DNA from: Minisyncoccota bacterium
Lineage (GTDB): Bacteria > Patescibacteriota > Minisyncoccia > Phycocordibacterales > CAJBRS01
NCBI GenBank assembly: GCA_035652395.1
Contig: DASRDX010000009.1
Span: forward strand, 355,739 to 419,738
Length of the DNA: 64,000 bases
Direction: 5' to 3'
The notes under the pieces are model-generated. The model made no database searches, had not been told where the DNA came from, and saw only the letters and a list, made by a program, of their open reading frames with translations. This document shows positions 8,250 to 51,008 of the stretch, piece after piece. The first letter of the stretch is position 1; every line of letters starts with the position of its first letter. The translations under genes were made by a program, and so were the position numbers.

Positions 8250-8260
8250 GAAATTGGGAG

Positions 8261-8806: not shown

Positions 8807-8827
8807 AGTGAGATCAACGCTTTTCGA

Positions 8828-9511: not shown

Positions 9512-9616
9512 TAATACCTCCTGATTTCAATTTTGGGTGTTCCGGAACTTCCGAAACTAGTTATCCCATTTCGGTAACTATCACAACTTATTTAAAAAGT
9601 CAAGTCTCTGGAGGGA

Positions 9617-23859: not shown

Positions 23860-23893
23860 GAGAATGATCGAGCGAGGATTAACGAGCCGGCCA

Positions 23894-32125: not shown

Positions 32126-32142
32126 GAGTGAAATTATAACAT

Positions 32143-33335: not shown

Positions 33336-33341
33336 TTAATT

Positions 33342-34446: not shown

Positions 34447-37400
34447 TTATGAAGTGGAGCTCCCTGAATCCGTTGGAGGCGCTGGTTCTGATGGAAGCGG
34501 CTCTGGAGCGGGATCAGTGCTTGTTCCGGAGATAGTTGAATTAGGAGAAGTTGAGGCGATGGAATCAGTAGAAGTAGAGCTTATGGTTGACCCATTAGAG
34601 CTTCCAGAAGTGTTGTCTGGCACTACTACGGTATTGTTGTTGGAATCAACAGTAATGACGGTGCCGCTTCCTTGAGTGGTTGAAGTAGCCGTAACGTCCT
34701 GACATTCCCCCGCTACGTTTACCATCGCACCATTTCGAATAACGACGCAATATGGATCACCGGTTACCTGATCGTAAAGAGTGATGCCGTTTGGATGAGA
34801 AGGCGCACCCACTGTAAGCTGCTTGGTAAACAGATGCGAGACATAAGCAATACCGTTTAGCATTTCAGCACCAAAGGATTGGAGCGCCGAAAGAAGATCG
34901 GCTCCGAGACCTGGGCCGCCGCCTCCGGCGGCGGCCCCTCCCCCAATATTCAGACTCTCCAAACTCTTCACTCGCAAGTCGAGCGAAGCGAATGCCGCCG
35001 TAGTCGACGCATTCTTATCATCCACTTTCTGATTTAGTCCTTTTATGGCTTCTACTAAGTATGGCCCTACCTGGGCATAGAGAAGGGATTTATAGCCATT
35101 GGCATCGGTTCGTACCAACTCCGGAATGGTCTTCTCCACATCCTGAGCGATAAAGCCAACTTGCGTAGTGGTCGTATCTCCTTGTCTCCAGTTATAGGTC
35201 ACTCCCTGCAAAGCTAGAACTTTATTCAGAGAATCTGATAGCGGATTAATATTCTGCTTCAATCGCTCATCTGAAGAACATGACCATCCTGTTCCTGCCA
35301 CTACCGTACACTGAGCAGTGCCGGCGCTACCATAAAATCGCGCCACATCTGTTCCTGCAGCAGAAACAGTTAAAGGATACGTTGGAGTGCTCGTCCCAAT
35401 GCCGACGTTACCAGCACCATTGTACACAATAGCGGGAGTAGCAAGTCCATACATACCAAACGATGTATAGTTTGATGTTGAATTTGTTCCTACATAATTA
35501 AAATCAATTGACGCAAGATTATAGTTTGAGGCATCTCTTCCTAATACATAACCGACCGTATTTGAACCTCCTGCTGTAGTCAGTCCGGAATAAAGCATCT
35601 TGGTAATCCAACCATTTGTTGGTCTAGAAGTTGGCTCAACCGATAACGGTGATCCGGGGTTTGTAGTACCGATGCCTACGTTCCCTGTCGCGGTATTCAC
35701 AAACAAGGCCGGCGTCGTTCCAGTGGCTACATTTAAGTTGCCCCAGACATCCAGTTTTTGAGAAGGAGAGGAGGTTCCAATCCCGACGTTGCCTGAAGCG
35801 AGAATGGTCATTCGTGTTAAGGCTCCGGTAGCAAAACTTATACTATTTGTTGGGGAATTACCACTAGTATTGTCCGAAGTAAAAGCTAAACCGACATTAG
35901 AATAAAATTGGGCGGTATTTGGAAAAGAAAATGCCCAATTACTATTAACTAGACCGAAACCTCCGTTCGTCCCATCGGCGCGGACAACTTGTACTCCTGA
36001 AAAGGCACTGGATCCAGTATTAGCATTTCGAATAGTAAGACCGTTTACAAAATTATTATCTGAATACGCAACACTTAGAGGTGTAGAGGGGGTTGTTGTT
36101 CCAATCCCGACATTGCCATTTCCATCAATTCTCATCGCTTCAGTATTGCCTACACCCGTTCGGGAAGTTGAAAAAATGAGTTGGCCAGTTCCCCAATTGC
36201 CATTTCTTGTTCCAGCTTGAGCCGCAATAGAAGCGATTCCTACAGCGTTTCCGGGGAGGTCGCGAGAAGCAAAAACTATTTGGTTAAAATTGTTTGCTGT
36301 CTCATCAAAATTATATAGAGTTAGTGCTGGTATGTTGTTGGCCAGAGTAGTGTTGCTATCTGATTGAAATATTCCTGTCACCGGGGCCCCTATATTACTT
36401 CCGTACCAGTAACCATTTGGTACTGACCCACCAATATTTAAGAAGTTCTGAGGACTATTTGTACCTATTCCCACATTCCCCGTCGCCGTATTCACAAATA
36501 GGGCCGGTGTGGTTCCCGTCGCTACATTCAAGTTCCCCCAGACGTCGAGTTTGGAACCAGGCGTCGTTGTTCCAATTCCCACATTCCCTGAAGATTTTAT
36601 AATCAATGCTTGAGTGCCATTCTGTCCTCCATTATTTGGAATAAATCCAATATCACTAATAGATCCTAATTCCATAATGGAGTTAGCTCGTCCAATGAAA
36701 GAGCCGCCTTCATTATTGAAGTTAGCTATTGTATTAAAATTGGCACCCCCATTTACATCAAGTTTATACTGAGGATTCGTCGTTCCAATCCCGACGTTGC
36801 CACTCGGCAAAATAGTGACTTGTTGATTGAATGTATTATTAGAAGATGCGCCAAGTGTTAGAGGATAATTCTGCATTGAGCCCAATTCAATACGCCCAGC
36901 GCCTGCATTCATGTGCAGCAAGCCGTACTTGGTTGTACCTTGTAAAAGCTCAAGAAAAACATTTTGGCCAGTAGGAGCTCCAAAACTCATTCCGCCGTAC
37001 GAACTTGTTGATTGAACATATAAAAGTGGATTTGAGCCATTGGAAATGGCACCTCCTCCAACACCTGCTACATGGAGATTTGCAGTTGGACTACTCGTCC
37101 CAATCCCGACGTTGCCTGTAAATGTGCTCGTGCCTGTAACTGCAATCGTACCTCCTATAGTGGCATTGCGAAGTAAGTAAAGATCTCGCCATCCCTGACT
37201 TCCTGCAGCGCCGAGGTCTTGACCTCCAGACGGAGTTAATATATTGGCACTAAATAAAATGTTTCCACTATCTGAAGAAATTATTCTTGTAGCACCGTTA
37301 ATTTGAATCATACCGCTCAGTCCACCATTGCCGCTCCGAATGGCTCCACCATTTAATGTTTCAATAGTTCCATCAACAAGTAAATTATTTGTTCCAGGAT

Positions 37401-40254
37401 CACTGACCCCTCCAATATGAACTCCTCCTGCAACAGCGAGTTTAGCTAAAGGCGTGCTTGTCCCAATGCCGACATTGCCCGATGAATCAATTCTCATTCT
37501 TTCCGATCCGTTTGTAAGCAGCCTAATTGGTCCAGACGTTGCATTATTAATCTCTAAGAAATTACCAGCTTGTTGATTGAAGGATATAGATGCTAATCGG
37601 CCAGTTGATGTTAGAAGATCAGCAAAGTTGACCGTATAAGTAGGGTCGGTCGTATAGTAAGTTGTGCCTTGATTAGAACCATTAATCATAATTTGTACAC
37701 CTCCGTTATCGAAGGCGGGGTTGCCGAACCCGTCTGGCCAGTTTAATCGGGTTGTGCCTGTTACTGTAAGTTTTTTTGAAGTGTTTGTTGTTCCAATCCC
37801 GACATTTCCCGCTTGAGTAATGTGAAATAATGACGTACCCGTCGAGGAGGCAATCTCAACTGCGTCCTTCCCCGCCACTGCTTGGAGAGTCAGTGTTGAG
37901 GATTGAGAAGTAGTGCCAAGAGAGAGATTGCGGACAATTAAGTCGCGGAAAGTGCCGGCAGAGCCGTTGTTGATTTCAAAAATCCCGGCAGCATTTCTGG
38001 TTAAACCGATATCAGGTGTTGAGCCAGTACCAAAAACTATTCCCGCCGTAGTCCAGCGAGATGGGGTGTTGTTAAAATTATTGCTACCAAGACCTAAACC
38101 TGCGGAGACTAGAGTTGAGTTGTTACCGGCATCCTTTAAGAGAAGGACGTCATTCCCTCCTATCCCGATATCTAATTCGTGAGTGCCCTGATTCTTGAAA
38201 TAATGTCCTCCATTTATTGGAAAGAGGGTCACCACTCCACTCCCGCTTGGAGCTAAAGTGATATTCTGATTCGTTCCTCCAGCATACATGGTCAAGCCGC
38301 CTGCTCCTCCTGTAATCTGCCCATTGCTCGCCACTATTGATCCGGCAAAAGTGGAAGTGGCGGAAGCATTCGTCGCCACAAAGTTCCCGGCTGTCTCGGT
38401 GCCCGTGGTAGTAGCATTTCCGGAGTTTATGAAGTTAGAAGCGGTGACGTTCCCGGTAAAATATCCGTTACCCACGACTGTTACCTTTTCAAAAGGAGTG
38501 GTGGTGGCAATGCCGAGGTTGCCCGCAACTGAACTATTCCCAGCCCCACTTACAGTTAAAGTGCCGGGCTGAGTAGAGTTGCCACTGTCGTCAATTGCCC
38601 ATTTAATAGCATTTCCTGTTCCCTGAATTTGGAAACCGCCTTGGTTACCAGAACCTGTTCCGCCATAACGGATTCTTGCAATATTGCTTAACCAAGAAAG
38701 ACCTACACTTGCTGATTGATTAGTAGGATTTAAAACTTCAACATCACCGCCAGAGGCTCCAGAGCTTTGGATAATACCATTGTATACATCTAATTTAGAT
38801 CCCGGACTAGTCGTACCGATCCCTACATTGCCATTCGCATCGATTCTCATTCGTTCAGAGCCACTGGAGCCGGTGCCAAAACGCAAAGAATTAGATCTCC
38901 CTTCGATCCGGGCGTTCTCGTTGTTCGTGCTGTAGAAAGTTAGATATTCTCCTGTATTGCCGGCATTGGTGCCCGCATTTTGGAGTCGAAAAATTTCCAC
39001 AGTTGCATTGTCTAAATCATTCTCAACATAGAGCTTAGCGGTTGGATTTGTTGTTCCAATCCCGACATTGCCGGCAAAGGTAGAGTTGGCCGCGCCGTCT
39101 GTAGCCACAAAGTAGGCGGCCACATTAGCACCGGTAGAAGTAGAATTAGTAAAAGTTAAATTAGTAAAGTTGGCATTATTGGCAAAGAAGTTGGAGGAAG
39201 TGGCACTGGTGAAGTTTCCGGACGTACTTGTAATTCTAGTACTAAATAAGTTTGTCCCGGTCGCATTGCCAAAAATAAAATTTGAGACATTGCCGTTGGT
39301 ACCATTTAGATTGGTGGAGAAGAGATTGGTAGAGGTAGCACTAGTGAAGAGATTGTTGGTGCTTGATAGATTGGCTAGGGAGAGATTAGTGCCAGTCGCA
39401 TTGGTGAAGATGAGATTGGTAATGTTAGAACTTGAAGCGTTTAGATTGTTGACGTTCTGAGTGTTGGTGAAGGTGGTGGTGCCAGAGACATTGAAGTTGC
39501 CGTTGACGGTGAGATCGTGATTGACGGTGAGATTTCCCCCAGTGTATAGATTTCCGGCAATGGTTGAAGTAGAAAAGCCGTTAAAGAAATTATTAATTTG
39601 GTTTTGGATATTAGTAATGTCGGAGTTTGAGGGACCGGTCCAAGAGCCGATTGGAGCAGAACCTCCAGAATATGTGATGTAGTTGTTGGTGATCGGTGCC
39701 GGCTGATTTGGCGCCGATCCACTTTGCGCGCCAAAAATTAGAGTGCGCAACTCTTGATCTAGATTTGAAAGCTTTTGGTTAAGTTCTTTTTCCGTGACAC
39801 CAGATTGGATGATGGTAGTTTTTTGCGGATCGACAATAGTGACTGGTTGATTTTTAGAATATGTAGTTACATTTGAGATCGTAGATGGTTGATAATTATT
39901 CTGATTTCCTGTATTTGGCTGAATGACAATCGAGGAGGTAGTGGTTGAGATGGGTGCGGGCTTTTTAAAGAGATCAAAGAAATGTTTCAGGAAATCACTG
40001 ATGGAAGAAAGCACGGAAGCTTCCATGTTAATCCCTTGTTGCCCTAAACCACTGTAGCTATTTGCCACTTGGGTCGGCAAGGTTCCGTAAAGGTGTGCCG
40101 CATCTTTAATGGAATTAATGATGGCAGAGTTCGAATTAAAAAAAGAGGTACTTCCAACAGAAGAGGCCGCCTCTACTTTAGAGACGTTTAGGAATAGGAC
40201 GCTTATTAAGAATAAAGAGCCTAAAACTTTATTAAAAACTGGGTTATGATTCAT
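34447..40254 (-). CDS. Giant secreted surface protein 1 (1935 aa). It has a signal peptide, an N-rich 11-mer tandem-repeat region, many tail-fibre-like GNVGIGTTxP repeats, and a C-terminal peptidase S74-like intramolecular chaperone domain. A conserved Cys-containing module and an S/T-rich tail follow.
   Basis: Signal peptide LGSLFLISVLFLNVSKVEA. Repeats of the type PGSKLDVWGNLNVATGTTPALFVNTATGNVGIGT. S74-like block CSSDERLKQNINPLSDSLNKVLALQGVTYNWRQGD...VGFIAQDVEKTIPELV...LLYAQVGPYLVEAIKGLNQK at about 35030..35280. Confidence 0.8.
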   Translation of the reverse strand: MNHNPVFNKVLGSLFLISVLFLNVSKVEAASSVGSTSFFNSNSAIINSIKDAAHLYGTLPTQVANSYSGLGQQGINMEASVLSSISDFLKHFFDLFKKPAPISTTTSSIVIQPNTGNQNNYQPSTISNVTTYSKNQPVTIVDPQKTTIIQSGVTEKELNQKLSNLDQELRTLIFGAQSGSAPNQPAPITNNYITYSGGSAPIGSWTGPSNSDITNIQNQINNFFNGFSTSTIAGNLYTGGNLTVNHDLTVNGNFNVSGTTTFTNTQNVNNLNASSSNITNLIFTNATGTNLSLANLSSTNNLFTSATSTNLFSTNLNGTNGNVSNFIFGNATGTNLFSTRITSTSGNFTSATSSNFFANNANFTNLTFTNSTSTGANVAAYFVATDGAANSTFAGNVGIGTTNPTAKLYVENDLDNATVEIFRLQNAGTNAGNTGEYLTFYSTNNENARIEGRSNSLRFGTGSSGSERMRIDANGNVGIGTTSPGSKLDVYNGIIQSSGASGGDVEVLNPTNQSASVGLSWLSNIARIRYGGTGSGNQGGFQIQGTGNAIKWAIDDSGNSTQPGTLTVSGAGNSSVAGNLGIATTTPFEKVTVVGNGYFTGNVTASNFINSGNATTTGTETAGNFVATNASATSTFAGSIVASNGQITGGAGGLTMYAGGTNQNITLAPSGSGVVTLFPINGGHYFKNQGTHELDIGIGGNDVLLLKDAGNNSTLVSAGLGLGSNNFNNTPSRWTTAGIVFGTGSTPDIGLTRNAAGIFEINNGSAGTFRDLIVRNLSLGTTSQSSTLTLQAVAGKDAVEIASSTGTSLFHITQAGNVGIGTTNTSKKLTVTGTTRLNWPDGFGNPAFDNGGVQIMINGSNQGTTYYTTDPTYTVNFADLLTSTGRLASISFNQQAGNFLEINNATSGPIRLLTNGSERMRIDSSGNVGIGTSTPLAKLAVAGGVHIGGVSDPGTNNLLVDGTIETLNGGAIRSGNGGLSGMIQINGATRIISSDSGNILFSANILTPSGGQDLGAAGSQGWRDLYLLRNATIGGTIAVTGTSTFTGNVGIGTSSPTANLHVAGVGGGAISNGSNPLLYVQSTSSYGGMSFGAPTGQNVFLELLQGTTKYGLLHMNAGAGRIELGSMQNYPLTLGASSNNTFNQQVTILPSGNVGIGTTNPQYKLDVNGGANFNTIANFNNEGGSFIGRANSIMELGSISDIGFIPNNGGQNGTQALIIKSSGNVGIGTTTPGSKLDVWGNLNVATGTTPALFVNTATGNVGIGTNSPQNFLNIGGSVPNGYWYGSNIGAPVTGIFQSDSNTTLANNIPALTLYNFDETANNFNQIVFASRDLPGNAVGIASIAAQAGTRNGNWGTGQLIFSTSRTGVGNTEAMRIDGNGNVGIGTTTPSTPLSVAYSDNNFVNGLTIRNANTGSSAFSGVQVVRADGTNGGFGLVNSNWAFSFPNTAQFYSNVGLAFTSDNTSGNSPTNSISFATGALTRMTILASGNVGIGTSSPSQKLDVWGNLNVATGTTPALFVNTATGNVGIGTTNPGSPLSVEPTSRPTNGWITKMLYSGLTTAGGSNTVGYVLGRDASNYNLASIDFNYVGTNSTSNYTSFGMYGLATPAIVYNGAGNVGIGTSTPTYPLTVSAAGTDVARFYGSAGTAQCTVVAGTGWSCSSDERLKQNINPLSDSLNKVLALQGVTYNWRQGDTTTTQVGFIAQDVEKTIPELVRTDANGYKSLLYAQVGPYLVEAIKGLNQKVDDKNASTTAAFASLDLRVKSLESLNIGGGAAAGGGGPGLGADLLSALQSFGAEMLNGIAYVSHLFTKQLTVGAPSHPNGITLYDQVTGDPYCVVIRNGAMVNVAGECQDVTATSTTQGSGTVITVDSNNNTVVVPDNTSGSSNGSTISSTSTDSIASTSPNSTISGTSTDPAPEPLPSEPAPPTDSGSSTS
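39130..39480 (-). repeat. Intragenic tandem repeats of about 33 bp (11-aa) in giant protein 1 (pattern xTNATGTNLFS).
   Basis: Visible DNA periodicity (gagattggt... variants) encoding NLIFTNATGTNLSLANLSSTNNLFTSATSTNLFSTNLNGTN... Confidence 0.5.
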
Positions 40255-40499: not shown

Positions 40500-43400
40500 T
40501 TAAGGATTGCTAATTGAAATATCCGTAGAAACGGGAAGACTACCTCCCGATCCCTCCCCTCCTGAATTATCGACACTCGCACCAATACCGGTATCCACTG
40601 CCGGCGGTAATGGAACAGGATTAGGTAAAATTTCTGTGGAGTTCACGGGAGAGCTCTCGTCTCCATTGGAAACAGTAGAAGTGGCAACTGGAGTAGAACT
40701 GCCGGAAGTATTGTTGGTATTATCCGGTACTACTACAGTGTTGTTATTTGAATCAATTGTAATAATGTTTCCGCTACCTGCTCCGACATTCGCTACCTGA
40801 TCGGTTGAGGTGCTGGTTGAATCCGGACATTCACCCGGGTCACTCTTCATTTCACCATTCATAAAGTAAACACAGATTGGTGAGCCGGTTCCTCGATCGT
40901 AAATGGTGAAACCGGTTTTAGAAACATCTTTACCTTTGATTGTTAAATTCTGTGTGGTGAGATGTTGAGCGAATACATTCTTCAAATATGAAATACCGTC
41001 CACAATTTCAGAACCAAATGACTGCAAGGTAGAAAGAATTTCTGAACCGAGTCCACTTGAAACTGTTACTCCCCCGCTTGTCTGCAAATCTTCCAAACTC
41101 TTTACCCGTATATCGATGGCAGAAAGTGCAGCGGTAGTGGAAGCATTGAAAGCATCTTGAGCGTCAAGGCGTGCAGTTGTGGAAGCGGTACTTGAAGAGA
41201 AACTGGCATAGAGAGATTTTACTGAAGCCATCAACAAACCGTTTACTGAAACTTGATCAATAACATTTCCCCACATGAATTGCGGATCCACTTCATCAGC
41301 GATGTATCCAATACGTTTCTTAGCCAACGGGCTATTCGAACCATAGCCTTCGACTTCGTTCTTGTATCGGAAGTAGTGGAGGGGAGAATCCAAAATCATT
41401 TTCAAAGCGCCATTGTAGTCGGAGTAATCAGTAATATCTTGCTTAGTATCTCGAGTGGAGGTTTGGGCGCCAATTACTACACCGGAGGCGTCGTTGGCAT
41501 TGGTTGGTGAAGAAGTGGAAACACGAACGTTTCCGGAACTGTCAGACCAGATGAATTTATCAATTCCTGTTCGGGATATTAAGTTAATTGAACCGGCACC
41601 GTTTGAAGCATTGGTATTGCGGCCTATTGTTAGGGTTCGGCCAGCCGCTCCTGCTCCAAGGTCAGCGTCTTCGAGATCAACAAAGGTTCGGGGAATAGTG
41701 CTTGTACCACCAATTCCAATATTTCCATTTGCAGCAATGTAAAGTTGTTGAGCGCCGGAAGAGGAAGCAACCAGAAGTGACATGTTGGCTCCTCCAACAC
41801 CTGTTACCCCAAGAGTGGCGAACGGAGTACTCGAGCCAACACCAAAGAAACCATTTGGTCGCAGAGTTAAGAGTTGAGCATTCGTGGAAGAAGCCACCAT
41901 AAATGGGTTGGTGGCGCCAGCAATACCAGTAACGGCTAAGGTGGCAAATGGAGTGGAGGAGCCGACACCGACATTACCGTTAAATGAAATGTGCAGTGCA
42001 GAGGTACCGGTTGATGAGGCAATGTCTAACAGGTCGTTAGCACCGGCCAATCCTTGAATGGAAAGTCGCGATGTACCGGTAGAAGTGCCGACGTTAATTA
42101 TTCCATTCAAAGTGTCCGCCACGAACAAGTTAGTGTTTCCAGTGGATCCTTGAATCTGCAGGGCTGTTACGGAATTAGTAGTTGATTGGAAAGAAACCGG
42201 AGCATTAACTACGCCACGAAGTTGAGTTGAACCAATCTGATATGAGGTGGCGATGGCGCCAGTCTGAAGTTGAACGGCATCAAGATAAAAGGTACGACCG
42301 TTAGCATCGGTCTGTTCAATGAAAATGTATGGGCTGCCTGAAATAGTTCCTGAAGTAAAAGTACAATAGAATCTTTTCCATCCACCAGTAACTACAGTAG
42401 TGTCATTTAAGGTACAGGTTTGTTCATTTACACCGTCGCTTGCGATGCCGGCTCGGATAGTAAAGTTGGCACCGGAAGCTTGAGAATAAAAAGATAAAGT
42501 GTATTGAGTAGCCGAGCTTAAAGCACTAGTAAATAAGGTGGTTTTGGCGCCGGAGGAAGCCGTGGCCGAATCCCCTACTGCCAGAGAGCTAACACCGTGA
42601 TACTTGTTGGTGGTCACACGGGTAGTAGAACCGGTGCCAGCAGTAATGGCCCAACCGGCGGCATTTACTTCAAAACCTGGGTTAGTCAGCAGGTTGTTTG
42701 AAGTAGTATCTACTACAAAGATTGGTGCACCTTGACTGTTTTGAACCTGAAAGGCGGTGGATGAGTTAGTTGGAGTCATGACTACCGCTGTCCCAGCCAC
42801 CGTTAAAGTCTGTCCTGGCGTAGAAGTGCTAATACCGAAATTACCATTTTGAAGCAAAGTTAAAAGTTGGGTGTTAGTAGAAGAGGCAATAATAAATGGA
42901 TTAATGCCTCCGTAACCTTTAACAGCCAAAGTGGCAATTGGAGTAGAGCTTCCGATGCCAACACTACCGGCTGAAGTAATACGCATTTTTTCTCCCAGAC
43001 CGCCGGTAGTGTTGTTCTTAAAACTTAAGTAGCTATTAGTTACACCGTTTGTGGCATCTTCTTTGCGAGCTTCAATGGTGCCAAAGACTCGAAGAGCAGT
43101 AGCGGGGCTGTCATTGTAGCCACCTAAAGTAATGGAAGCTCCGACATCTGCCGCTTGGGCGTTGGTGGTATAGACATTCAAATTACCGAATACGCTACCG
43201 GCAGTAGTAACGTTGGCTGAAGCAATATCTACCGTACTATTTGGACTAGCGGTGCCAATTCCAATTTTGCCGGTGGCAGTGTTTGCCGAGAAAAGCGGGG
43301 TGGAAGAAGTGGCGATATTCAGGTTGCCCCAAATATCCACTAATTGAGAAGGAGAGGAGGTACCGATACCAATCTTCCCTACCGCCGTGTTTGCAATGAA

Positions 43401-46400
43401 TAGTGAAGTAGATGAAGTGGCGACGTTGAAATTTCCCCAGACATCCAATCGCTGTGAAGGAGAAGATGTGCCAACCCCTAAGTTACCGTTTGTATCCAAT
43501 CGCATTCTTTCTTGATTGAAAGTTTTGAAAGCTAAAGAGTTGTTGTCAATCGTTCCAAGGGTAGCGAGAGCTCCGAACGAGTTCCCGTTTTGTTGAAAGT
43601 CGTTAGCCAACAGAGTCGAAGTAGAAACCCAAGTTGGCGCCACCCCTGCCCCCGCTGACTGAAGGACTTGCCCAGTAGTGCCGGCATTACCATTTGGCGT
43701 AAGAGCACCGGTGAAATTTATGTCGCCTCCGACCGAAAGTTTAGAAGATGGAGTGGTAGTGCCGACTCCAACGTTTCCGTTAGTCAAGATGCGAAATAAC
43801 TGAGTACCTGTTGATGAAGCCACTACAAACGGATCGGAGGCACCTACGCCAGTGACTGAGAGAGTGGCAAAAGGTGTAGTTGAGCCAACTCCTAATCTTC
43901 CAGCACTGGTAAGTCTCATTCCTTCGCTCAGGTTTCCTCCAGATGCTCTGGTTGAGAAACTAAGATCGGTACTAATAGGTGAACTAAGGTACGTGGCTCC
44001 CATATCAATCAAACCATCTTGAATTCTAGTTATGAGAGCGTTTTGTGAACCCGTCACGTTGTTGAAAATAGTTGTAGTTCCAAAAGTGCCGCCATTGTTT
44101 ATGCCATTTGAAATAACCAATGGAGCAGTAGGGTTACTGCTTCCCACCCCGACCATTCCAGTCGCAGTGTTCACAAATAAAGCTGGGGTGGTACCCGTGG
44201 CTACGTTTAAATTTCCCCAAAGATCTAATTTCTGTGAAGGAGTGGTAGTGCCGATGCCAAAATTGCCAGTATTTAATAAGGTAACTGCAGGGTCGGTTGA
44301 TTGAGTTCTAAATTGTATTCCTGATTGTCCATAGATTCTAAACATTGCCGCTCCGTTGGCATTCAAATCGTTGAATCCGTTTGTGTAGAAATTATAATTA
44401 TTAGAACCAGTTCCTACTTGAAGTCCAAGACTTGTGGTCGGATCTCCGGCTACAACAAGCATGGGGGCATTATTTGAAAGGGTGGACGCATTTACTCCTA
44501 TACCGACGTGCCCATTCTGAGATATGGCAAATAGATGACTATCTGTGGAAGAGGCGACAATGAATGGATTAGTGCCAGATGTACCTTTGACACTAAGCGT
44601 GGCAATTGGACTCGATGTGCCAATACCAACGTTTGCAGTATTATTGTTGAAAATATTGTTTCCGCTTGTGGTCCAGACACTATTTAAAGTATTTCCGGTA
44701 AATGAAAGACCTGTGCCCGCGGTGATGGCAGCTTGTTTGCCATTAAAAGTACTCCAGTCTGCAGAAGTTAATAGTCCCCTATTTGAAGCCGAGGCGCTTG
44801 GCATATTAAACGTATGAGTGGATCCGGAAGATACGATTGAGAAATCCGTGCCGGTGGTGGTAGTGGCAAAAGTTTGGCTGGCTCCACTCAAACCATTCAA
44901 ACTAGTTATACCGGATCCCCCACTAATGCCCAGTGTAGAAGTAGCAACCCATCTAGTAGATGTGCCGGTAGTCTGAAGAACCATTCCGAGAGTGCCGGCT
45001 GTAGCGGAGCCATCGAACAAAGTTTTAGTTAAAGAAAGTGAACCGCTAATTCCTAAACTATCGGTAATAGTAGAAGTGCCGGCGCCGGAGATTGTGGTTA
45101 GACCAGTAAAGAGTCCACTTCCAGCTACAGAAAGATTGGTGGTAGGGGTGGAGGTGCCGATGCCAACTTTTCCTGTCGCCGTATTTACCAAAAAGGTAGG
45201 AGTTGAACTTGTTGCAACATTTAGGTTGCCCCAAATGTCTAGTCTTTGTGAAGGAGTGGTTGTGCCAATTCCTATGTTTCCCGTAGAAAGATTTCCGTAC
45301 AAAGCCCCTCCAATATTAAGAAAATTATTGGCACTAGCCAATATGGATGAAGCAAGATATCCAATTAGAATGTTATTACTACTATTGTCTAGACTGGCTC
45401 CAGCGTTATATCCTAATAAAACATTGTTGGATCCTGTGACCATACTAGCGCCGGTATTCATTCCCAAGAAAACATTGTTGGATCCTGTAACTAGACTTCC
45501 TCCTCCCATGTCTCCCATTGCAATGTTATTTGAAATTGGACCTGGGGTGGCACCCTGATTCCAAGCATATCCTCCTAAGATTTCCTGGCCTATACCAGAG
45601 TTTGAACTGCCACTGGTATTATTTGCTCCTGCATAGTTACCAATAAAATTATTTGATTGTCCTATTGTATTCTGGATTCCAGCACCAATTCCTAAGAAGG
45701 TATTATCAAATCCGGTTGTATTGTAATATCCGGCGCTATTTCCTAGAAAAATATTTTCATAACCGCTGGTGGTAGTGTTGCCTGCACCACTGCCTAAGAA
45801 AATATTGTCTCGACCCGTAGTGTTTTTTGACCCGGCAGTTAAACCAATAAATACATTATTGTTTCCAGTGGTGTTGTTTGCGCCCGCACTGCTCTCAGCA
45901 AAAAAGTTGTTTCCGCCGGTAACTGCAGCGGTCGTTGTTGGAGTTGCTCCAGCTAAATAAAAACTCTTCGTTCCTGTAGCCAGAAGAGCAGATATGCCAT
46001 TAAAATAAAGGGGTTGGGTGTAGTTACTTGTTCCAGCAACGGTCAAAGCATAGCCGGCAGTGGTGGTACCAATGCCAACATTTCCTGTAGCTGTGTTTAC
46101 AAACAAAGTTGGAGTCGTACCTGTGGCCACATTCAAGTTTCCCCAGACATCTAATTTCGATCCAGGCGTGGAGGTACCAATGCCAACATTGCCGTTATTC
46201 AAAACTGAAAGAAACGTGGAGGAATTATTTCCCGCCGAGAAAATATTTCCTGAACCGATTTGCGTGATAGCGAGGGCCGTTTGCGTTGAGGAAGCAAAAA
46301 GAACTCCGGCCTGATCATTGCGTAAGTATTGCGTTGAAGATGCGCCGCCGAGATTATAGGCTTCAATGGCGGCCGGCACAGCACCGATAATTTTTCGCGG

Positions 46401-46799
46401 CGTCATTTCCGAATCTGATTCCACCGTTACTCCAAGATAAAGGGTCTGATTAAAATTGATTCCGGTAAGCGGCGTAGTAGAGCCGAGCATCACACTGAAG
46501 AGTCCGCTTGTTACCTGAATTTTATTTGCTCCAGTGTCAGCTTCCGTCCAAATAGCGGCGCCTCCGGTTGAAACGGTGTAGAGTTTGAAAGTTATGTTAT
46601 AGAGACCATCGGCGACGGCAACGTTTGAAGCGTTGGTCAACTTGCCTTGATAATTAACCTGTTGATTGATGGCGGCTTGAACTAAAGTCCCATCTGAAAA
46701 AATAGATAAAAAAATACTCCCAGTGGTAAGGAGTGTAAGTATGAGGGACCTTACGAAAAACGTATTCAGTTGTCGGTTTCTTATAAGCCTATGGACCAT
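40500..46799 (-). CDS. Giant secreted surface protein 2 (about 2099 aa from ATG 46799; the ORF track gives a TTG start at 46835). It has a signal peptide, tail-fibre-like Gly-rich repeats, a CBM4_9-like jelly-roll domain and a C-terminal S74-like intramolecular chaperone domain. The same conserved Cys module and S/T tail as protein 1 follow.
   Basis: The ATG at 46799 is preceded by the same SD context (AGAGGGATTC) as gene 1. Signal peptide MVHRLIRNRQLNTFFVRSLILTLLTTGSIFLSIFS. CBM-like block NPGFEVNAAGWAITAG...YTLSFYSQASG...GGWKRFYCTFTSG...TFYLDAVQLQ at about 42265..42690. S74-like block DITDYSDYNGALKMILDSPLHYFRYKNE...KRIGYIADEV...NGLLMASVKSL at about 41200..41455. Confidence 0.8.
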   Translation of the reverse strand: MVHRLIRNRQLNTFFVRSLILTLLTTGSIFLSIFSDGTLVQAAINQQVNYQGKLTNASNVAVADGLYNITFKLYTVSTGGAAIWTEADTGANKIQVTSGLFSVMLGSTTPLTGINFNQTLYLGVTVESDSEMTPRKIIGAVPAAIEAYNLGGASSTQYLRNDQAGVLFASSTQTALAITQIGSGNIFSAGNNSSTFLSVLNNGNVGIGTSTPGSKLDVWGNLNVATGTTPTLFVNTATGNVGIGTTTAGYALTVAGTSNYTQPLYFNGISALLATGTKSFYLAGATPTTTAAVTGGNNFFAESSAGANNTTGNNNVFIGLTAGSKNTTGRDNIFLGSGAGNTTTSGYENIFLGNSAGYYNTTGFDNTFLGIGAGIQNTIGQSNNFIGNYAGANNTSGSSNSGIGQEILGGYAWNQGATPGPISNNIAMGDMGGGSLVTGSNNVFLGMNTGASMVTGSNNVLLGYNAGASLDNSSNNILIGYLASSILASANNFLNIGGALYGNLSTGNIGIGTTTPSQRLDIWGNLNVATSSTPTFLVNTATGKVGIGTSTPTTNLSVAGSGLFTGLTTISGAGTSTITDSLGISGSLSLTKTLFDGSATAGTLGMVLQTTGTSTRWVATSTLGISGGSGITSLNGLSGASQTFATTTTGTDFSIVSSGSTHTFNMPSASASNRGLLTSADWSTFNGKQAAITAGTGLSFTGNTLNSVWTTSGNNIFNNNTANVGIGTSSPIATLSVKGTSGTNPFIVASSTDSHLFAISQNGHVGIGVNASTLSNNAPMLVVAGDPTTSLGLQVGTGSNNYNFYTNGFNDLNANGAAMFRIYGQSGIQFRTQSTDPAVTLLNTGNFGIGTTTPSQKLDLWGNLNVATGTTPALFVNTATGMVGVGSSNPTAPLVISNGINNGGTFGTTTIFNNVTGSQNALITRIQDGLIDMGATYLSSPISTDLSFSTRASGGNLSEGMRLTSAGRLGVGSTTPFATLSVTGVGASDPFVVASSTGTQLFRILTNGNVGVGTTTPSSKLSVGGDINFTGALTPNGNAGTTGQVLQSAGAGVAPTWVSTSTLLANDFQQNGNSFGALATLGTIDNNSLAFKTFNQERMRLDTNGNLGVGTSSPSQRLDVWGNFNVATSSTSLFIANTAVGKIGIGTSSPSQLVDIWGNLNIATSSTPLFSANTATGKIGIGTASPNSTVDIASANVTTAGSVFGNLNVYTTNAQAADVGASITLGGYNDSPATALRVFGTIEARKEDATNGVTNSYLSFKNNTTGGLGEKMRITSAGSVGIGSSTPIATLAVKGYGGINPFIIASSTNTQLLTLLQNGNFGISTSTPGQTLTVAGTAVVMTPTNSSTAFQVQNSQGAPIFVVDTTSNNLLTNPGFEVNAAGWAITAGTGSTTRVTTNKYHGVSSLAVGDSATASSGAKTTLFTSALSSATQYTLSFYSQASGANFTIRAGIASDGVNEQTCTLNDTTVVTGGWKRFYCTFTSGTISGSPYIFIEQTDANGRTFYLDAVQLQTGAIATSYQIGSTQLRGVVNAPVSFQSTTNSVTALQIQGSTGNTNLFVADTLNGIINVGTSTGTSRLSIQGLAGANDLLDIASSTGTSALHISFNGNVGVGSSTPFATLAVTGIAGATNPFMVASSTNAQLLTLRPNGFFGVGSSTPFATLGVTGVGGANMSLLVASSSGAQQLYIAANGNIGIGGTSTIPRTFVDLEDADLGAGAAGRTLTIGRNTNASNGAGSINLISRTGIDKFIWSDSSGNVRVSTSSPTNANDASGVVIGAQTSTRDTKQDITDYSDYNGALKMILDSPLHYFRYKNEVEGYGSNSPLAKKRIGYIADEVDPQFMWGNVIDQVSVNGLLMASVKSLYASFSSSTASTTARLDAQDAFNASTTAALSAIDIRVKSLEDLQTSGGVTVSSGLGSEILSTLQSFGSEIVDGISYLKNVFAQHLTTQNLTIKGKDVSKTGFTIYDRGTGSPICVYFMNGEMKSDPGECPDSTSTSTDQVANVGAGSGNIITIDSNNNTVVVPDNTNNTSGSSTPVATSTVSNGDESSPVNSTEILPNPVPLPPAVDTGIGASVDNSGGEGSGGSLPVSTDISISNP

Positions 46800-46873
46800 T
46801 TCAGAATCCCTCTGAAATATATCCCCCTCGTTCAATTTAGAGTCCTGAACTAGACTTTTATCCCTCGTCTAAA

Positions 46874-46901
46874 ATTATAACCTACCTGAAAGCTTTGGCA
46901 A
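46874..46901 (-). promoter_or_regulatory. Putative sigma70-type promoter of giant gene 2.
   Basis: On the minus strand: TTGCCA, 16-nt spacer, TATAAT. Confidence 0.4.
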
Positions 46902-47078: not shown

Positions 47079-48434
47079 TTATCGCCAAATTAATTCCAGC
47101 ATCAAAAGAATGATTAAGAGGATCCAAAGCCAACTCCATCCAGGAAATTGTAGTTTATTTAAAAAACCGGAATCTTCTGAAGGCGGAATTGTTTGGAGCT
47201 TTCCTTTTTGTTGAATCAGGGTCGTGCCGTTAGCATCCACAGCGCTAATAAAAAATTCATACAAGCCGATTTTATGATATGCCGGTATCAAAGCTTCAAA
47301 AGTATTGTTACTCCCCTCTCGGGTTAAATTGTATACATTAAACTTATTGAAATCCTTTTCATCTTGGACACTTAAGATCACTTGATAAAAATTCTCTGGC
47401 AGACTTTCGGTAGATACAATGAACTTAATTGAATTATTACCCTCTACTTGTGCTAGATTATTGTAAAAATATTTCTGTTCATTGTTCTGTTCTATGCTAA
47501 TTCGGAATAAGTTCTTTGAAGTCGGAGATAAAATACTTGTAGAACTGGTAGCAACAAAGACCTGTTCATTCCGATTATTAAGAGCTGGTATGATTCGCAG
47601 ATGTAACAGTGCACCGGAGGAAAAATTACCGTCAATATTTTCCACGAAAGCGGCATAATAATAATCGTGATTAATTTGGAGCGGCCCATCCGTAACGGAA
47701 GTGCCCGTGCCCTTATAAATTTCTTTGCCATGTGCCGAGTCAATTGGATAATTAAAATCGGAACGAGTGAGGACTAAATCTCGAAAGGGTTGCTCCGAAG
47801 AATACTGCCACGTTAATTTAACCGATGATCCGACTAACTGATATGAGAAGTTCAAGATATTAATTGGTGATTGAAAAGGGCTTAAGGTAAGAAATGGAAT
47901 TGGACCGACAAAACTCGATTGACCCTTTCGATCGGTAGACTGAATCTTAAAATAATAAAGGGTGGCAGGTTCCAGATAATCAAGCTCAATCTGATGATTT
48001 ATACCGTAATTAATTTCGGTCACTCCTCCTTTCTCTGTATCGGCAGTCTTGCCCCAATTTAATAATCCGATTGATTCTCCAGTCGTTTGCCATTCTATTA
48101 AAACAGAGGTGTCGAAGAGATTAATAACTTTAATGCTTTGAGGTAAAACGGCGCTCGAAATACCGGAAGAAGTAACGGCAGTGAGCGGAGCCGGTCCGTA
48201 GTTAATGTTTGCAGAAGGCGCCGGAGTAGAAGAGGCATTACAATCTAAAGGACATCCGCCATAGGTCTCGCCGAATTGGGGTTCACAGATGTTGTTGTTA
48301 TTGCAATTATGGACCTGTAACTCAACAACGGAGGCAGTGTCGGCCGCTAAAGCGGCCGACACTGCAAAAAACGATAAAAATAGAGACCATCCAACAATAA
48401 TGGCCCCTATTAAAAAGACATTTCTAAAGGACAT
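47079..48434 (-). CDS. Surface protein with two fibronectin type III-like domains and a C-terminal TM anchor.
   Basis: Signal peptide. Cys-rich segment HNCNNNNICEPQFGETYGGCPLDCNA. FN3-like blocks SIKVINLFDTSVLIEWQT...LYYFKIQSTD and VKLTWQYSSEQPFRDLVLTRSDFNYP...YYYAAFVEN. C-terminal GWSWLWILLIILLMLELIWR. Confidence 0.5.
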   Translation of the reverse strand: MSFRNVFLIGAIIVGWSLFLSFFAVSAALAADTASVVELQVHNCNNNNICEPQFGETYGGCPLDCNASSTPAPSANINYGPAPLTAVTSSGISSAVLPQSIKVINLFDTSVLIEWQTTGESIGLLNWGKTADTEKGGVTEINYGINHQIELDYLEPATLYYFKIQSTDRKGQSSFVGPIPFLTLSPFQSPINILNFSYQLVGSSVKLTWQYSSEQPFRDLVLTRSDFNYPIDSAHGKEIYKGTGTSVTDGPLQINHDYYYAAFVENIDGNFSSGALLHLRIIPALNNRNEQVFVATSSTSILSPTSKNLFRISIEQNNEQKYFYNNLAQVEGNNSIKFIVSTESLPENFYQVILSVQDEKDFNKFNVYNLTREGSNNTFEALIPAYHKIGLYEFFISAVDANGTTLIQQKGKLQTIPPSEDSGFLNKLQFPGWSWLWILLIILLMLELIWR

Positions 48435-48435
48435 A

Positions 48436-49194
48436 CTATAGAGCCACGGCAGTAACCGTTACTGAAGCCTGATAAGTACCGGCTTCCTGAATCTTATTGG
48501 AACCGATTCCTACCTGATACTTAACGGAAGTGGTGGCCCCGTTTGGCTGATTATTGGTAGTGCCGAGAGCAATAGTTTTGGGACTCGTAGACATACCGTC
48601 CCAACATCGGTCCGTCGTATCCGTAGAACCAGTGTTGCAGGCACTACCATTATTGCGATAGCGGGAGATTACGTCTGAACCATGAGGGGAAAAACCAAAA
48701 GTGGAGGAAGCTGCTCCAACACTAAAAAGAAAATCAGGGGCAGCGCCGGCGGGGGCGTAATCCGTAATTGAAGCGCTGGTGCTGGTAGATTTTAGGGCGG
48801 GAGTAGTAGATGCCACGATAGAAAGTTGATAGCCTGCCGGATCATCTGTAACCACTATCCAATCCGATTGGGCTTGCACGGATCCACCGGAAATGCCGCT
48901 AATGTTCGGTAAGGAAATATTAACTGTATTAGATACAGAAATGTAGTTAGTCTGTAAGGCCTGATAGCCGGCGCTTAGACGATAGTTGGTACTTGAGCTG
49001 AAACCGGTTCCTACCTCCCCCACCGTACTTTCTTGTCTATAGTTACTACTGGTGCTAAAACCACCTCCAATATTCAAACTATCAGACTGAATCTTGTATG
49101 AGCTGCTCTGCATGACGGCGGCAAAAATAGAAAGCGGTATCAGAAGTATGGAAATTAAAATGACCAGTTTTAAAGTCTTGAAAATTTTTAGCAT
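48436..49194 (-). CDS. WxL-domain-like secreted surface protein (paralog A).
   Basis: Signal peptide. Motif DWIVVTDDPAGYQLS resembles the first WxL motif (TWxLxDAP). Paralogous to 50202..50873 over the C-terminal 150 aa. Confidence 0.4.
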   Translation of the reverse strand: MLKIFKTLKLVILISILLIPLSIFAAVMQSSSYKIQSDSLNIGGGFSTSSNYRQESTVGEVGTGFSSSTNYRLSAGYQALQTNYISVSNTVNISLPNISGISGGSVQAQSDWIVVTDDPAGYQLSIVASTTPALKSTSTSASITDYAPAGAAPDFLFSVGAASSTFGFSPHGSDVISRYRNNGSACNTGSTDTTDRCWDGMSTSPKTIALGTTNNQPNGATTSVKYQVGIGSNKIQEAGTYQASVTVTAVAL

Positions 49195-49230
49195 GAGATT
49201 TTTAGAGGCGCCGCGAAGCGGCGCCTCTTC

Positions 49231-50199
49231 CTACTTCCTCTTCAGTTCAAAGTTGCGTCTAAAGAAGTAGATAAGAGCGACTAAGATTAGTATGATGAGA
49301 ATAACGATGATCATGATCTTGTAAGGAATGACCCAGAAAGAAATAGTCATGTCATCAGTAGTGCTGGCGTACCCGCGATTAAGGGTAACCGTGGCAGTGT
49401 ATCTTCCGAGAGCAATATTCTTCCCCCACGGAATCTCCCGATAACGAAGTGAGTGAGGCAAAGCAAAGTAAGCATCAATTGGCAACTGATCAATCGTGGC
49501 TCCCCACATATTTTTGACCGTAATATAACCATAAGGAACGAGGTGAATGTTTCCATCGTTATTGAAGTAGACCTGAAAGGTTAAGTTGCCATTCTGATAA
49601 ATGGGTCCCGCTTCTTTGATGCGGAAATCGGATAGCCGACCACTTTGATTAACCGGCCCCAAAACTCGAACAAAAAGCAGGGACCCAATTCGGGAAATAA
49701 TAGTGGCTGCTTGGGCCGCCGCCGTACTTGAACCGGCATTTAATTTTGATGGCGCGTTTGAAACAATAACCGCTCCATAGAAACCGCCTGGTGCGGCATC
49801 TTTTGGTAGATCAACTTTGACCGGAATTTGAATACGTTCGCCAAAGTGAAGGGTAAATTGATTAACTTCCGGATGCAGGTAATCTTTCAAAGAGTACGGA
49901 CTTTTATCTCCTCCGAGCAGGACTACCGGCTGTTGGGGGTTGTTGGAACCGACTATGTCTTCAGATTTTATATCGAAGGTGACCGGATCTTTAATTCGGC
50001 TGGTAACACTGATATTAACAGTAGCGCTTTGACCCGGATTGAGATCAACTTCCTGCTTGGCAGGCTCTACCACGAAATCATTCCGATTTTCAACAGTCGT
50101 CTGGAAGACCGTGTAAGCGCGAATGGCAATAGCTCCAATCAAAAGAACGGCCAGTGTAGCACAAATCGAAATCAGAATTTTCTTTTGATTGAAAGCCAT
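49231..50199 (-). CDS. DUF916/DUF3324-like cell-surface protein (CscA-like WxL-locus partner). N-terminal signal/TM, C-terminal TM and a basic tail.
   Basis: 322 aa. N-terminal LISICATLAVLLIGAIAI. C-terminal IMIIVILIILILVALIYFFRRNFELKRK. Placed between two WxL-like genes in one operon. Confidence 0.35.
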   Translation of the reverse strand: MAFNQKKILISICATLAVLLIGAIAIRAYTVFQTTVENRNDFVVEPAKQEVDLNPGQSATVNISVTSRIKDPVTFDIKSEDIVGSNNPQQPVVLLGGDKSPYSLKDYLHPEVNQFTLHFGERIQIPVKVDLPKDAAPGGFYGAVIVSNAPSKLNAGSSTAAAQAATIISRIGSLLFVRVLGPVNQSGRLSDFRIKEAGPIYQNGNLTFQVYFNNDGNIHLVPYGYITVKNMWGATIDQLPIDAYFALPHSLRYREIPWGKNIALGRYTATVTLNRGYASTTDDMTISFWVIPYKIMIIVILIILILVALIYFFRRNFELKRK

Positions 50200-50201
50200 A
50201 A

Positions 50202-50873
50202 CTAGCTTGCCAAGGCCGTTCCGACAACTGTAGCCTTGTAGGCGGCGGAAGCTGTAGGAGTTGGAACAAAGAAATTATTTTGTTCAACGGCAAAGCAAAC
50301 TGTAGTTGTGACGCCGGTCGGAGTAGTAGTGGAAGTTCGGCTAGCAGCATTTACTTGGCTGATATAAGCGGCGGAAGAAGTGGCTAGCCCTTGATATTTC
50401 AGAGTAGTAGATGTTCCATTGGCGCTCGCTCCACAGGCTGCTCCAGTTCCCCAAGAACCCGTAGAAGTGTCAGTGCCGAAAGCAGTATAACCAAAGTAAG
50501 CGCTGCCGGAAGTGGCTACCCAAATGCTTGGAGCTGCCTTCTGGTAATCGGCGATACTAAAGGTAGGAGTTGGAGACATCTGCATGGCGGGAGTTCCAGT
50601 AGAAGTCATGGCCAGCGTGTAGCCGGCGGAATCGTTGGTGATAACCGTCCAAGTACTTGTGGCAATGGCCGAATTCTGAGTAATACCTAAGGCCGTACTC
50701 ATCGTCGTATCTCCGGAATTTGAGAGACTGATACCTTGAGTTACGTTTAAAGTAACGATTACTTGAGCGGTAACCGCTTTAGCGAACTGCGGCTCAAGTG
50801 CTCCGTAAGAGAAGAAGGCCAGCACCGCAATGACTAAGGTCGTAGAAAGAATAATACTAAGATGTTTTAGCAT
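50202..50873 (-). CDS. WxL-domain-like secreted surface protein (paralog B).
   Basis: Signal peptide. Motif TWTVITNDSAGYTLA. Paralogous to 48436..49194. Confidence 0.4.
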   Translation of the reverse strand: MLKHLSIILSTTLVIAVLAFFSYGALEPQFAKAVTAQVIVTLNVTQGISLSNSGDTTMSTALGITQNSAIATSTWTVITNDSAGYTLAMTSTGTPAMQMSPTPTFSIADYQKAAPSIWVATSGSAYFGYTAFGTDTSTGSWGTGAACGASANGTSTTLKYQGLATSSAAYISQVNAASRTSTTTPTGVTTTVCFAVEQNNFFVPTPTASAAYKATVVGTALAS

Positions 50874-50895
50874 TTAATTGTATTTAGATATCAAT

Positions 50896-50924
50896 ATTAT
50901 ACCCCGCCCCCTCTAGAGGCACAA
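50896..50924 (-). promoter_or_regulatory. Putative sigma70-type promoter of the WxL-like operon.
   Basis: On the minus strand: TTGTGC, 17-nt spacer, TATAAT. This lies about 25 nt upstream of the ATG at 50873. Confidence 0.4.
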
Positions 50925-51008
50925 GCAATAATATGATTAATGGGGATAAGTCTTATCCCAGAGAATCCCTCTCATAAATTACGACGAAAGGGGTGCCCAA
51001 ATCTTTCT

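Follow-up and report, generated by a model that had tools for sequence, protein, structure and literature searches.

A four-gene minus-strand operon encoding the proteins P1 to P4, found in a 64,000-nt stretch of Minisyncoccota DNA (the window), is probably a divergent form, in Paceibacteria (Parcubacteria), of the Pam pilus of CPR bacteria, that is, an usher-less, chaperone-assisted filament or anchor module. In this ultrasmall CPR organism its product is most likely a thin filament on the cell surface, or an anchor, and its membrane-tethered chaperone is related to Gram-negative pilus chaperones as well as to the WxL-interacting proteins (WxLIP) of enterococci. The Pam pilus was described in 2026 in Candidatus Mycosynbacter amalyticus (Saccharimonadia, CPR; Troman et al., bioRxiv 10.64898/2026.03.03.709456). 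A sequence-only reading had seen in the gene order a likeness to Csc (cell-surface complex) clusters. WxL domains and an LPXTG partner are absent, and a pilus module of the CPR Pam type is the better label for the operon because P3 is, judged by its sequence, a homologue of PamT.

All four ORFs were found where they had been placed (Table 1), with intergenic gaps of 2, 36 and 1 nt for P1/P2, P2/P3 and P3/P4, respectively. They are real genes, since database homologues are numerous: searches at E<=1e-3 returned 253 for P2 and 630 for P3, and the P3 family comprises 2,481 representative clusters at 50% identity. The topologies also agreed with the sequence-only reading, P2 and P4 having an N-terminal signal peptide and a C-terminal TM segment, and P1 and P3 a signal peptide alone. 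Upstream of P1, the string proposed as the operon's promoter is present (50924..50896) with a perfect -10, but its -35 matches at only 3/6 positions, the consensus promoter scan did not pick it up, and promoter-like sites in the region show no excess over shuffles (7 versus 6.8 expected); it is a plausible but unproven candidate promoter. Site counts from the consensus promoter/terminator scan as a whole were not above those of shuffled sequence. The proposed terminator hairpin, which starts 43 nt past the P4 stop, exists with a stem of 20 bp rather than 19 bp; lying between the operon and giant 1, it probably acts as a terminator or attenuator.

Table 1. Coordinates of the operon, the neighbouring giant genes and candidate signals in the window.
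Feature	Position	Strand	Basis and remarks
P1, 223 aa	50202..50873	minus	ORF list
P2, 322 aa	49231..50199	minus	ORF list
P3, 252 aa	48436..49194	minus	ORF list
P4, 451 aa	47079..48434	minus	ORF list
Promoter-like string TTGTGC-17-TATAAT	50896..50924	minus	Read directly; 5' of P1
Hairpin, perfect 20-bp stem, 3-nt loop	46994..47036	minus	Inverted-repeat reading; T-rich tract after
Promoter-like site TTGCCA-16-TATAAT, 11/12 match	46874..46901	minus	Consensus scan; 5' of giant 1
Giant 1, secreted tail-fibre-like, 2111 aa	40500..46835	minus	ORF list
Giant 2, tail-fibre-like, 1935 aa	34447..40254	minus	Peptidase_S74 E=3.6e-17

No usher is encoded in the operon, in which all four genes are accounted for and none specifies a large beta-barrel. 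CPR bacteria are regarded as monoderm. A sortase-dependent Gram-positive pilus was considered and rejected, since P1-P4 and the giants are without an LPxTG-like motif and the sole sortase in the window (9617-10279) lies 37 kb from the operon.

The evidence for a pilus begins with the two small proteins. P3 consists of a signal peptide, a highly conserved N-terminal segment (28-80) that contains two SxNY repeats and is disordered in the monomer model, and, as pilin core, a beta-sandwich (85-252) in which two Cys (186, 197) form an invariant pair. It matches the PamT model NF058579 at E=5.7e-11 and 42 bits, against an equivalog cutoff of 240 bits, over model positions 7-132 of 241, the N-terminal half only; the same model is matched by 59/60 P3-family members (best E=2.6e-17). 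These matches mark P3 as a PamT homologue, not an equivalog. In a PDB structure search its closest matches are chaperone-usher pilins, archaic CsuA/B first, and we infer that P3 is a PamT-like tip or adaptor pilin. P1 is a paralog of P3, as had been recognised from the sequence (32% over 152 aa, E=3e-14 by BLASTP; probability 100%, E=7e-43 between the two families by hhalign). It is without the SxNY N-terminal extension, its mature N-terminus forms a conserved strand in which every other residue is hydrophobic (VxVTLxVTxGIS in the family alignment), and it has two cysteines, at 147 and 193. The model NF058581 (CPR_Pam_pilin_C) is weakly matched by 2/53 P1-family members. P1 is a secreted single-domain pilin-like subunit and the candidate major subunit. 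Searches with the single sequences of P1-P4 against PDB sequences gave nothing useful, and the pilin and chaperone proteins had no sequence match to Pfam SCPU or PapD; at the level of fold, structure matching paired P3 and P2 with pilin and PapD-like chaperone folds, respectively. The C-terminal strand motif GxYxAT.T.TA presumably resembles that of SCPU/Csu pilins.

Both paralogs had previously been taken for WxL-like proteins. On that account the operon would encode a Csc/WxL cell-surface complex, in which P2, as the WxLIP/CscA orthologue, would stabilise non-covalently wall-bound P1 and P3 on peptidoglycan, forming no filament but a wall platform for the giant fibres. We consider such a complex unlikely. 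PF13731 was found in none of the 53 P1-family and 60 P3-family members (0/113), even at E<=0.1, and hhalign returned a probability of 0.2% against both a genuine small WxL protein and the WxL domain of 9i25; WxL identity was rejected on these results. Besides 9i25, the comparison sequences came from an Enterococcus WxL cluster; a query with the 126-aa EfmWxLIP1 segment gave fragments only. Chaperone-usher pilins, led by CsuA/B, dominate the best structural matches of P3, and the solved WxL domain 9i25_A does not appear there; CsuA/B belongs to the archaic Csu pilins, one of the identities that the sequence-only reading had itself named as refuting its view. The motif that had suggested WxL, W-x-V-x-T-(D/N)-D-x-AGY, does occur in both window proteins, but its Trp is not conserved across the P1 family (consensus V.TN...GY). 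Moreover, an LPXTG protein is absent.

P2 is most likely a membrane-tethered two-domain chaperone of PapD-like and WxLIP-like type. Behind its signal peptide lie two beta-sandwiches (30-148 and 170-290), a TM helix (293-316) and a basic tail, and between the sandwiches a loop modelled with low confidence (~150-168) leads into a conserved strand (170-179). In the structure search P2 is chaperone-like across both domains, with CsuC among its best matches, and it has the FimC/PapD-like two-domain fold and C-terminal TM helix of PamC/PamD. WxLIP is a remote homologue detectable by sequence and also the top structural neighbour, P2 superposing on WxLIP about as well as on chaperones of the PapD type. 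Of the features on which the earlier assignment to CscA/DUF916 rested, the signal peptide and the C-terminal TM helix are present; in the Pfam searches PF06030 (DUF916) remained below its gathering score and PF11797 (DUF3324) gave no sequence match. The likeness to DUF916 probably comes from a shared PapD-like chaperone, and this link in sequence and structure between P2 and the WxLIP of Firmicutes has apparently not been reported before. The same features bear on a chaperone-independent donor-strand fibre, in which P1 and P3 would self-assemble like TasA, archaeal TLP or cannulae subunits and P2 would be an unrelated Ig-domain membrane protein. A fibre of this kind is very improbable: TasA-like scores fall below those for CsuA/B, and P2, besides being specifically chaperone-like in both domains, invariably adjoins P3 and is sometimes fused to it.

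P4 comprises a signal peptide, a short conserved N-terminal strand, a Cys-rich segment (C44-C65) specific to the window protein, tandem FN3 domains (~98-280), a further conserved domain (~290-420) and a TM segment (428-451). Its description as a two-FN3 protein with a C-terminal TM anchor was confirmed at family level, where the profile matched titin in four stretches (E=9e-22), neogenin in three, and tandem FN3 proteins overall in two to four; with the window protein alone, Pfam fn3 and Pur_ac_phosph_N were sub-threshold. By analogy with the architecture described for PamR, an RbmA-like tandem-FnIII protein (bioRxiv 10.64898/2026.03.03.709456), P4 matches a PamR-like membrane anchor.

The order P2-P3-P4 is kept in 74/80 GTDB loci, with a pilin-like gene upstream in 52/70. 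The module is very common: one peptide pattern is matched by 107 GTDB species representatives, and all of the module proteins are annotated 'hypothetical'. P2-P3 gene fusions occur in ~15 representative clusters and 4 loci. In some proteins the P3 module stands C-terminal to lectin-like domains (for example P0195, with PF13385), by analogy the layout of a FimH/PapG-type tip adhesin, and in some lineages it is joined to the C-terminal end of giants 1205 and 2187 aa long.

Giant 1, whose true start is likely the Met at ORF residue 13, has an N-terminal domain of ~220 aa in common with giants behind the module in other genomes; this domain is 48-71% identical among them, and the remainder of the protein varies. 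A weak Peptidase_S74 match lies at 1794-1850, and giant 2 has a clear Peptidase_S74 intramolecular chaperone domain and is without the module-associated N-terminal domain. That this domain might be a pilin paralog was rejected, hhalign having aligned signal peptides only. The proposed co-occurrence of module and fibre genes holds in other genomes, where a giant with the conserved domain follows in 39/61 assessable loci. This frequency, together with the fusions of the P3 module to giants, favours a module dedicated to giant-fibre export and anchoring, in which P1-P4 would form a short basal adaptor (a P3/P1 oligomer with P4 as its membrane foot) that holds the trimeric giant by its N-terminal domain and builds no pilus of its own. 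However, about one third of the loci have the module without an adjacent giant, a strong hairpin divides the giant from the operon, the giant has its own promoter-like site, and its N-terminal domain is without detectable relation to the pilin families, so that we regard this arrangement as improbable.

For the Pam-type pilus that we favour, the following assembly may be envisaged. Sec would export all four products, and P2, whose C-terminal helix would hold its two Ig domains on the outer face of the membrane, would cap the pilin-like subunits, whose Ig fold is presumably incomplete, probably with the strand after the flexible 150-168 loop as the equivalent of the F1-G1 hairpin. P3 would begin the fibre at its distal tip or serve as an adaptor; PamT is described as being without a donor strand (bioRxiv 10.64898/2026.03.03.709456). 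Copies of P1 would polymerise below P3 by donor-strand exchange via the conserved N-terminal strand, an exchange to which the pilin-like fold, the conserved N-terminal strands and the chaperone-subunit fusions lend indirect support. P4 would terminate the fibre and tie it to the membrane, and the downstream giant, perhaps in contact with the module, would be a co-evolving partner and probably a host-recognition fibre.

Several features are shared with Pam. One single-domain subunit is homologous to PamT, the chaperone is PapD/FimC-like and bears a C-terminal TM helix, the FN3-based protein (PamR in Pam) joins an N-terminal strand to a TM helix at its C-terminus, and a gene next door encodes a tail-fibre-like protein; in both systems, all components are predicted Sec substrates, an usher is absent and the pilin-like subunits have paired cysteines. 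Whereas Pam has the two-domain major pilins PamA, PamB and PamE, with a nine-strand NTD, a linker donor strand and a truncated-Ig CTD in PamA/PamB, none of these occurs in the operon, whose subunits are single-domain (223 and 252 aa) and whose only major-subunit candidate is the 223-aa PamT paralog. Pam has two chaperone genes rather than one, and its PamR measures 32.8 kDa against the 451 aa and extra domain of P4. Furthermore, the PamT model score is far below the NCBI equivalog cutoff, P1, P2 and P4 have no significant match to any Pam NCBIfam model, and the Pam structures 25PZ and 25QA were not among the matches in the PDB searches. A tail-fibre-like protein and ATP synthase genes are conserved pam neighbours (bioRxiv 10.64898/2026.03.03.709456), whereas ATP synthase genes were not found among the window ORFs scanned; ORFs of 553, 297 and 453 aa at 3993-8163 were considered as atpA-G-D and rejected, having no Pfam matches and adjoining the sortase. 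The host also differs, being a member of the Paceibacteria, whereas the PamA/B-based survey of the preprint found Pam mainly in Saccharimonadia and Microgenomatia (bioRxiv 10.64898/2026.03.03.709456).

WxLIP combines DUF916, DUF3324 and a TM helix in the WxL/Csc clusters of Lactobacillales and Listeria (PMC10599100; PDB 9i1y, 9i25). P2 resembles it in its signal peptide, two Ig-like domains and C-terminal TM helix, and in both kinds of cluster small secreted proteins with a beta-sandwich fold accompany a tethered protein with an Ig pair and a very large protein of the surface. In contrast, WxL/Csc clusters encode two or more proteins with the WxL domain (PF13731, dual WxL motifs) and mostly a small LPXTG protein (CscD), of which the operon has none; they belong to Firmicutes rather than CPR; and their large partner carries a C-terminal WxL domain where the giants here share an N-terminal one. 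The partners of P2, unlike those in WxL/Csc, have a chaperone-usher pilin-like fold. Archaic (sigma) chaperone-usher pili (Acinetobacter Csu, with the pilin CsuA/B and the chaperone CsuC; Pseudomonas CupE) supply the best fold match of the P3 core in CsuA/B and one of the best of P2 in CsuC, yet they possess an outer membrane and an usher, neither of which is present here, and their chaperone is periplasmic rather than membrane-tethered.

With a chaperone that is detectably homologous to DUF916/WxLIP by sequence and superposes on both WxLIP and PapD-type chaperones, and with partner subunits of Csu-like pilin fold, the module could link Gram-negative chaperone-usher pili, CPR Pam pili and Firmicute WxL/Csc clusters, now treated as separate, a connection that we put forward tentatively, as possible rather than probable. 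If the homology is real, WxLIP would be a membrane-tethered PapD-like chaperone, WxL clusters would assemble subunits with a chaperone and without an usher, instead of being plain complexes that bind peptidoglycan, and the tethered-chaperone pathway would be the monoderm counterpart of chaperone-usher pili, widespread and possibly ancestral to them. For the WxL virulence clusters, which occur in enterococci, lactobacilli and Listeria, this amounts to a mechanistic hypothesis that can be tested. A large part of bacterial diversity belongs to CPR/Patescibacteria; those in culture live attached to their hosts, and their means of attachment is known mainly from Saccharibacteria. Because the operon is without a PamA/PamB-type pilin, a survey based on these proteins would miss the module; with its recognition the class of Pam pili would come to include Paceibacteria, in a minimal version whose pilins have a single domain, and the modular family of tip adhesins, which join lectin-like domains or giants to a PamT-like module, would offer candidates for studies of host recognition.

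The four minus-strand ORFs P1 to P4 form a real, conserved operon, and their positions are exactly those given in the sequence-only reading. The P1-P2, P2-P3 and P3-P4 gaps measure 2, 36 and 1 nt; gatB and obg lie upstream. Downstream come two giant ORFs, giant 1 (40500-46835, 2111 aa) and giant 2 (34447-40254, 1935 aa), and then gapdh-rpiB-rpe-tkt. That reading also assigned the operon a promoter and a terminator hairpin. Both are present as strings, but the promoter has a weak -35 element and is uncalled by the promoter scan, and counts of promoter-like sites near the operon in a consensus scan equal the shuffled expectation. The 135-nt gap between gatB and P1 holds a short inverted repeat (GGGATAAG-AC-TTATCCC, 50941-50957, minus strand), which may be the gatB terminator.

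Features of the operon and its surroundings (window positions), with the loci and protein clusters of related groups
Feature	Position or members	Strand	Details
P1	50873..50202	minus	ORF, 223 aa
P2	50199..49231	minus	ORF, 322 aa
P3	49194..48436	minus	ORF, 252 aa
P4	48434..47079	minus	ORF, 451 aa
Perfect 20-bp inverted repeat, 3-nt loop	46994-47036		43 nt past P4 stop; T-rich tract after
TTGTGC-17-TATAAT	50924..50896	minus	string read directly
Giant 1 promoter-like site, strong	46901->46874	minus	11/12, consensus scan
Loci with no giant after the module, P4 then ~341/162/215/298-aa ORFs	L035, L038, L039, L046, L049, L058, L070, L071, L074, L077, L080, L085
P2-P3 fusion clusters	P0253, P0259, P0266, P0269, P0276, P0279, P0280, P0282, P0285-P0287, P0292, P0362, P0383

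GTDB species representatives were scanned with a single pattern (107 genomes; 80 loci kept), and the ORFs of the kept loci were searched with HMMs for five parts. The P2-P3-P4 order is kept in 74 of the 80 loci. Of 70 loci assessable for an upstream pilin-like gene, 52 have one (two such genes in some), and of 61 assessable for a giant after the module, 39 have one that carries a conserved N-terminal domain.

The paralogy of P1 and P3 is genuine: the two proteins share 32% identity over 152 aa (E=3e-14), and hhalign of their families gives a probability of 100% (E=7e-43). P1 carries a signal peptide and no TM segment, and in its mature form starts with a conserved strand in which hydrophobic residues alternate (VxVTLxVTxGIS). 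The SxNY segment of P3 is conserved yet disordered. A profile of the P4 family hits tandem FN3 proteins, among them titin (E=9e-22, four stretches) and neogenin (E=3e-15, three stretches), and P4 ends in a TM segment; the operon proteins contain no LPXTG motif. Separately, in the P1 family alignment Glu-Pro is nearly invariant where the hydrophobic core of the signal peptide ends (consensus y...EP....A; P1 residues 26-28, window 50793-50798 region), just before the predicted cleavage site; unusual in Sec signal peptides, this pair could point to a dedicated signal peptidase or to a sorting step. P4 also carries a Cys-rich segment, CNNNNICEPQFGETYGGCPLDC (four Cys; residues 44-65, window 48302-48241), between its N-terminal strand and FN3 domains, which the family consensus does not share.

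These parts resemble the Pam pilus, described in a 2026 preprint from the CPR bacterium Ca. Mycosynbacter amalyticus, which comprises the two-domain pilins PamA and PamB, assembled by donor-strand exchange, the single-domain tip pilin PamT, the FimC/PapD-like chaperones PamC and PamD, each with a C-terminal TM helix, and PamR, an RbmA-like tandem-FnIII protein with an N-terminal strand and a C-terminal TM helix, proposed to end the pilus and tether it; a PamA/PamB-based phylogenetic survey placed the system mainly in Saccharimonadia and Microgenomatia (bioRxiv 10.64898/2026.03.03.709456). P3 is a PamT homolog, P2 a chaperone of PamC/PamD architecture and P4 a PamR-like anchor, and the adjoining giants are tail-fibre-like, with Peptidase_S74. 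However, the window operon lacks two-domain pilins of the PamA/B/E type, its sole candidate major subunit being P1, a single-domain tip-pilin paralog; and every named source of the module belongs to Paceibacterota/Parcubacteria, in contrast to the survey. The proposal of a WxL-like surface operon holds for its DUF916-like and FN3-plus-TM proteins and its link to the giants, but the operon is better placed with the Pam pilus, as a new and minimal variant from Paceibacteria.

The DUF916-like character of P2 leads to the WxL-interacting protein (WxLIP) of Firmicute WxL/Csc clusters. For WxLIP, PMC10599100 reports that AF2 places a strand from a DUF916 beta-hairpin within the WxL domain, and that DUF916 loses stability when WxL is missing, both resembling PapD-type chaperone behaviour. 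In a profile alignment, P2 loop 146-170 and the next strand align with the WxLIP acidic loop and 'IKNRIAYNLA' strand, and we infer that this region would correspond to the F1-G1 donor hairpin found in the chaperones of chaperone-usher systems. A PapD-type connection is unmentioned in PMC10599100, the companion WxL paper and the Pam preprint, and a full-text literature search returned nothing relevant tying WxL to 'donor strand' or DUF916 to 'chaperone-usher'; the link that can be detected between the operon and Firmicute WxLIP seems not to have been reported before.

The PamT-like (P3) module is found in 2,481 representative clusters (exhaustive HMM search, E<=1e-3); among the best 149 of these, 48 exceed 330 aa and divide into three classes. 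The first, some 15 clusters, comprises P2-P3 fusions, also seen in loci L025, L044, L055 and L057 as single ORFs of 528-556 aa. Such fusions retain both the TM region of P2 and the signal-peptide region of P3, could represent polyproteins cut by signal peptidase or recurrent stop-codon loss, and provide Rosetta-stone-type evidence for a chaperone-subunit interaction. In the second, which includes giants, a signal peptide and unrelated N-terminal domains, some lectin-like of LamG type, precede a complete C-terminal P3 module including the SxNY segment (P0306, 2187 aa; P0381, 1205 aa; the P0251-P0397 class (b)), a layout shared with the lectin-plus-pilin-domain adhesins of FimH/PapG type and resembling 'large WxL' proteins. 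P0195 carries PF13385 Laminin_G_3, and a 'SWYDSDWxYRK' subgroup may be DUF2341/LamG-like. In the third, insertions of 150-350 aa separate the SxNY segment from the core, which suggests that this segment functions as a distinct element.

Giants that follow the module in different genomes share an N-terminal domain of ~220 aa (48-71% identity) and differ elsewhere, with LVIVD repeats, CBM_4_9 or Peptidase_S74. Stalk repeats following this domain (alignment A5) match Bdellovibrio bacteriovorus fibres Bd2133 (8ond_A, E=8e-5) and 8ol4_A (E=4.5e-4). In giant 2 the Peptidase_S74 domain, an intramolecular chaperone, is clear (E=3.6e-17) and the module-associated N-terminal domain is missing; the giant 2 N-terminus instead matches a second giant in locus L005. 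The conserved domain was considered as a pilin relative and rejected, having no detectable relationship to the pilin families. In many loci with no giant after the module, the ORFs directly after P4 match in size gapdh-rpiB-rpe-tkt, which follow both giants in the window (30292-34367). With gene identity read from ORF sizes alone, this suggests that the giants are a variable insertion at one conserved site in the chromosome. Two of these loci, L039 and L071, have a giant upstream of the module instead. Eight loci (L047, L048, L062-L064, L069, L075 and L083, some labelled Lloydbacteria) encode P4 anchors of ~975-1017 aa, twice the usual length. These anchors may have taken up additional domains, and in this set the module is not followed by a giant bearing the conserved N-terminal domain.

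The window may hold other surface systems. A sortase gene (9617-10279, minus strand; PF04203, E=4.5e-21) adjoins four ORFs (453, 297, 553 and 227 aa), all without a Pfam match. At least two of these have a signal-peptide-like or TM segment at the N-terminus, and one contains IPATG at residue 312; the 3993-10279 span may be a second, sortase-dependent surface-protein cluster. PF07963, the N-terminal methylation motif of type IV pilins, occurs in two small proteins (24604-25086 and 25416-25934, minus strand; E=4e-9 and 5e-9) near an SLT-domain transglycosylase (503 aa, 22483-23994); the genome thus has type IV pilin-like proteins too, distinct from the P1-P4 module.

For the module itself, the analysis shows homology, folds, topology, gene order across genomes and gene fusions. 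We infer polymerisation, the order of the subunits and any contact that they make with the giant, within a mechanism that, taken whole, is our best estimate and fairly probable. Subunits would be exported via Sec and capped by P2, a membrane-tethered chaperone; P3 would occupy the distal end, P1 would polymerise by N-terminal donor-strand exchange, and P4 would act as fibre terminator and anchor, with the separately transcribed giant fibre as a putative co-evolving partner.
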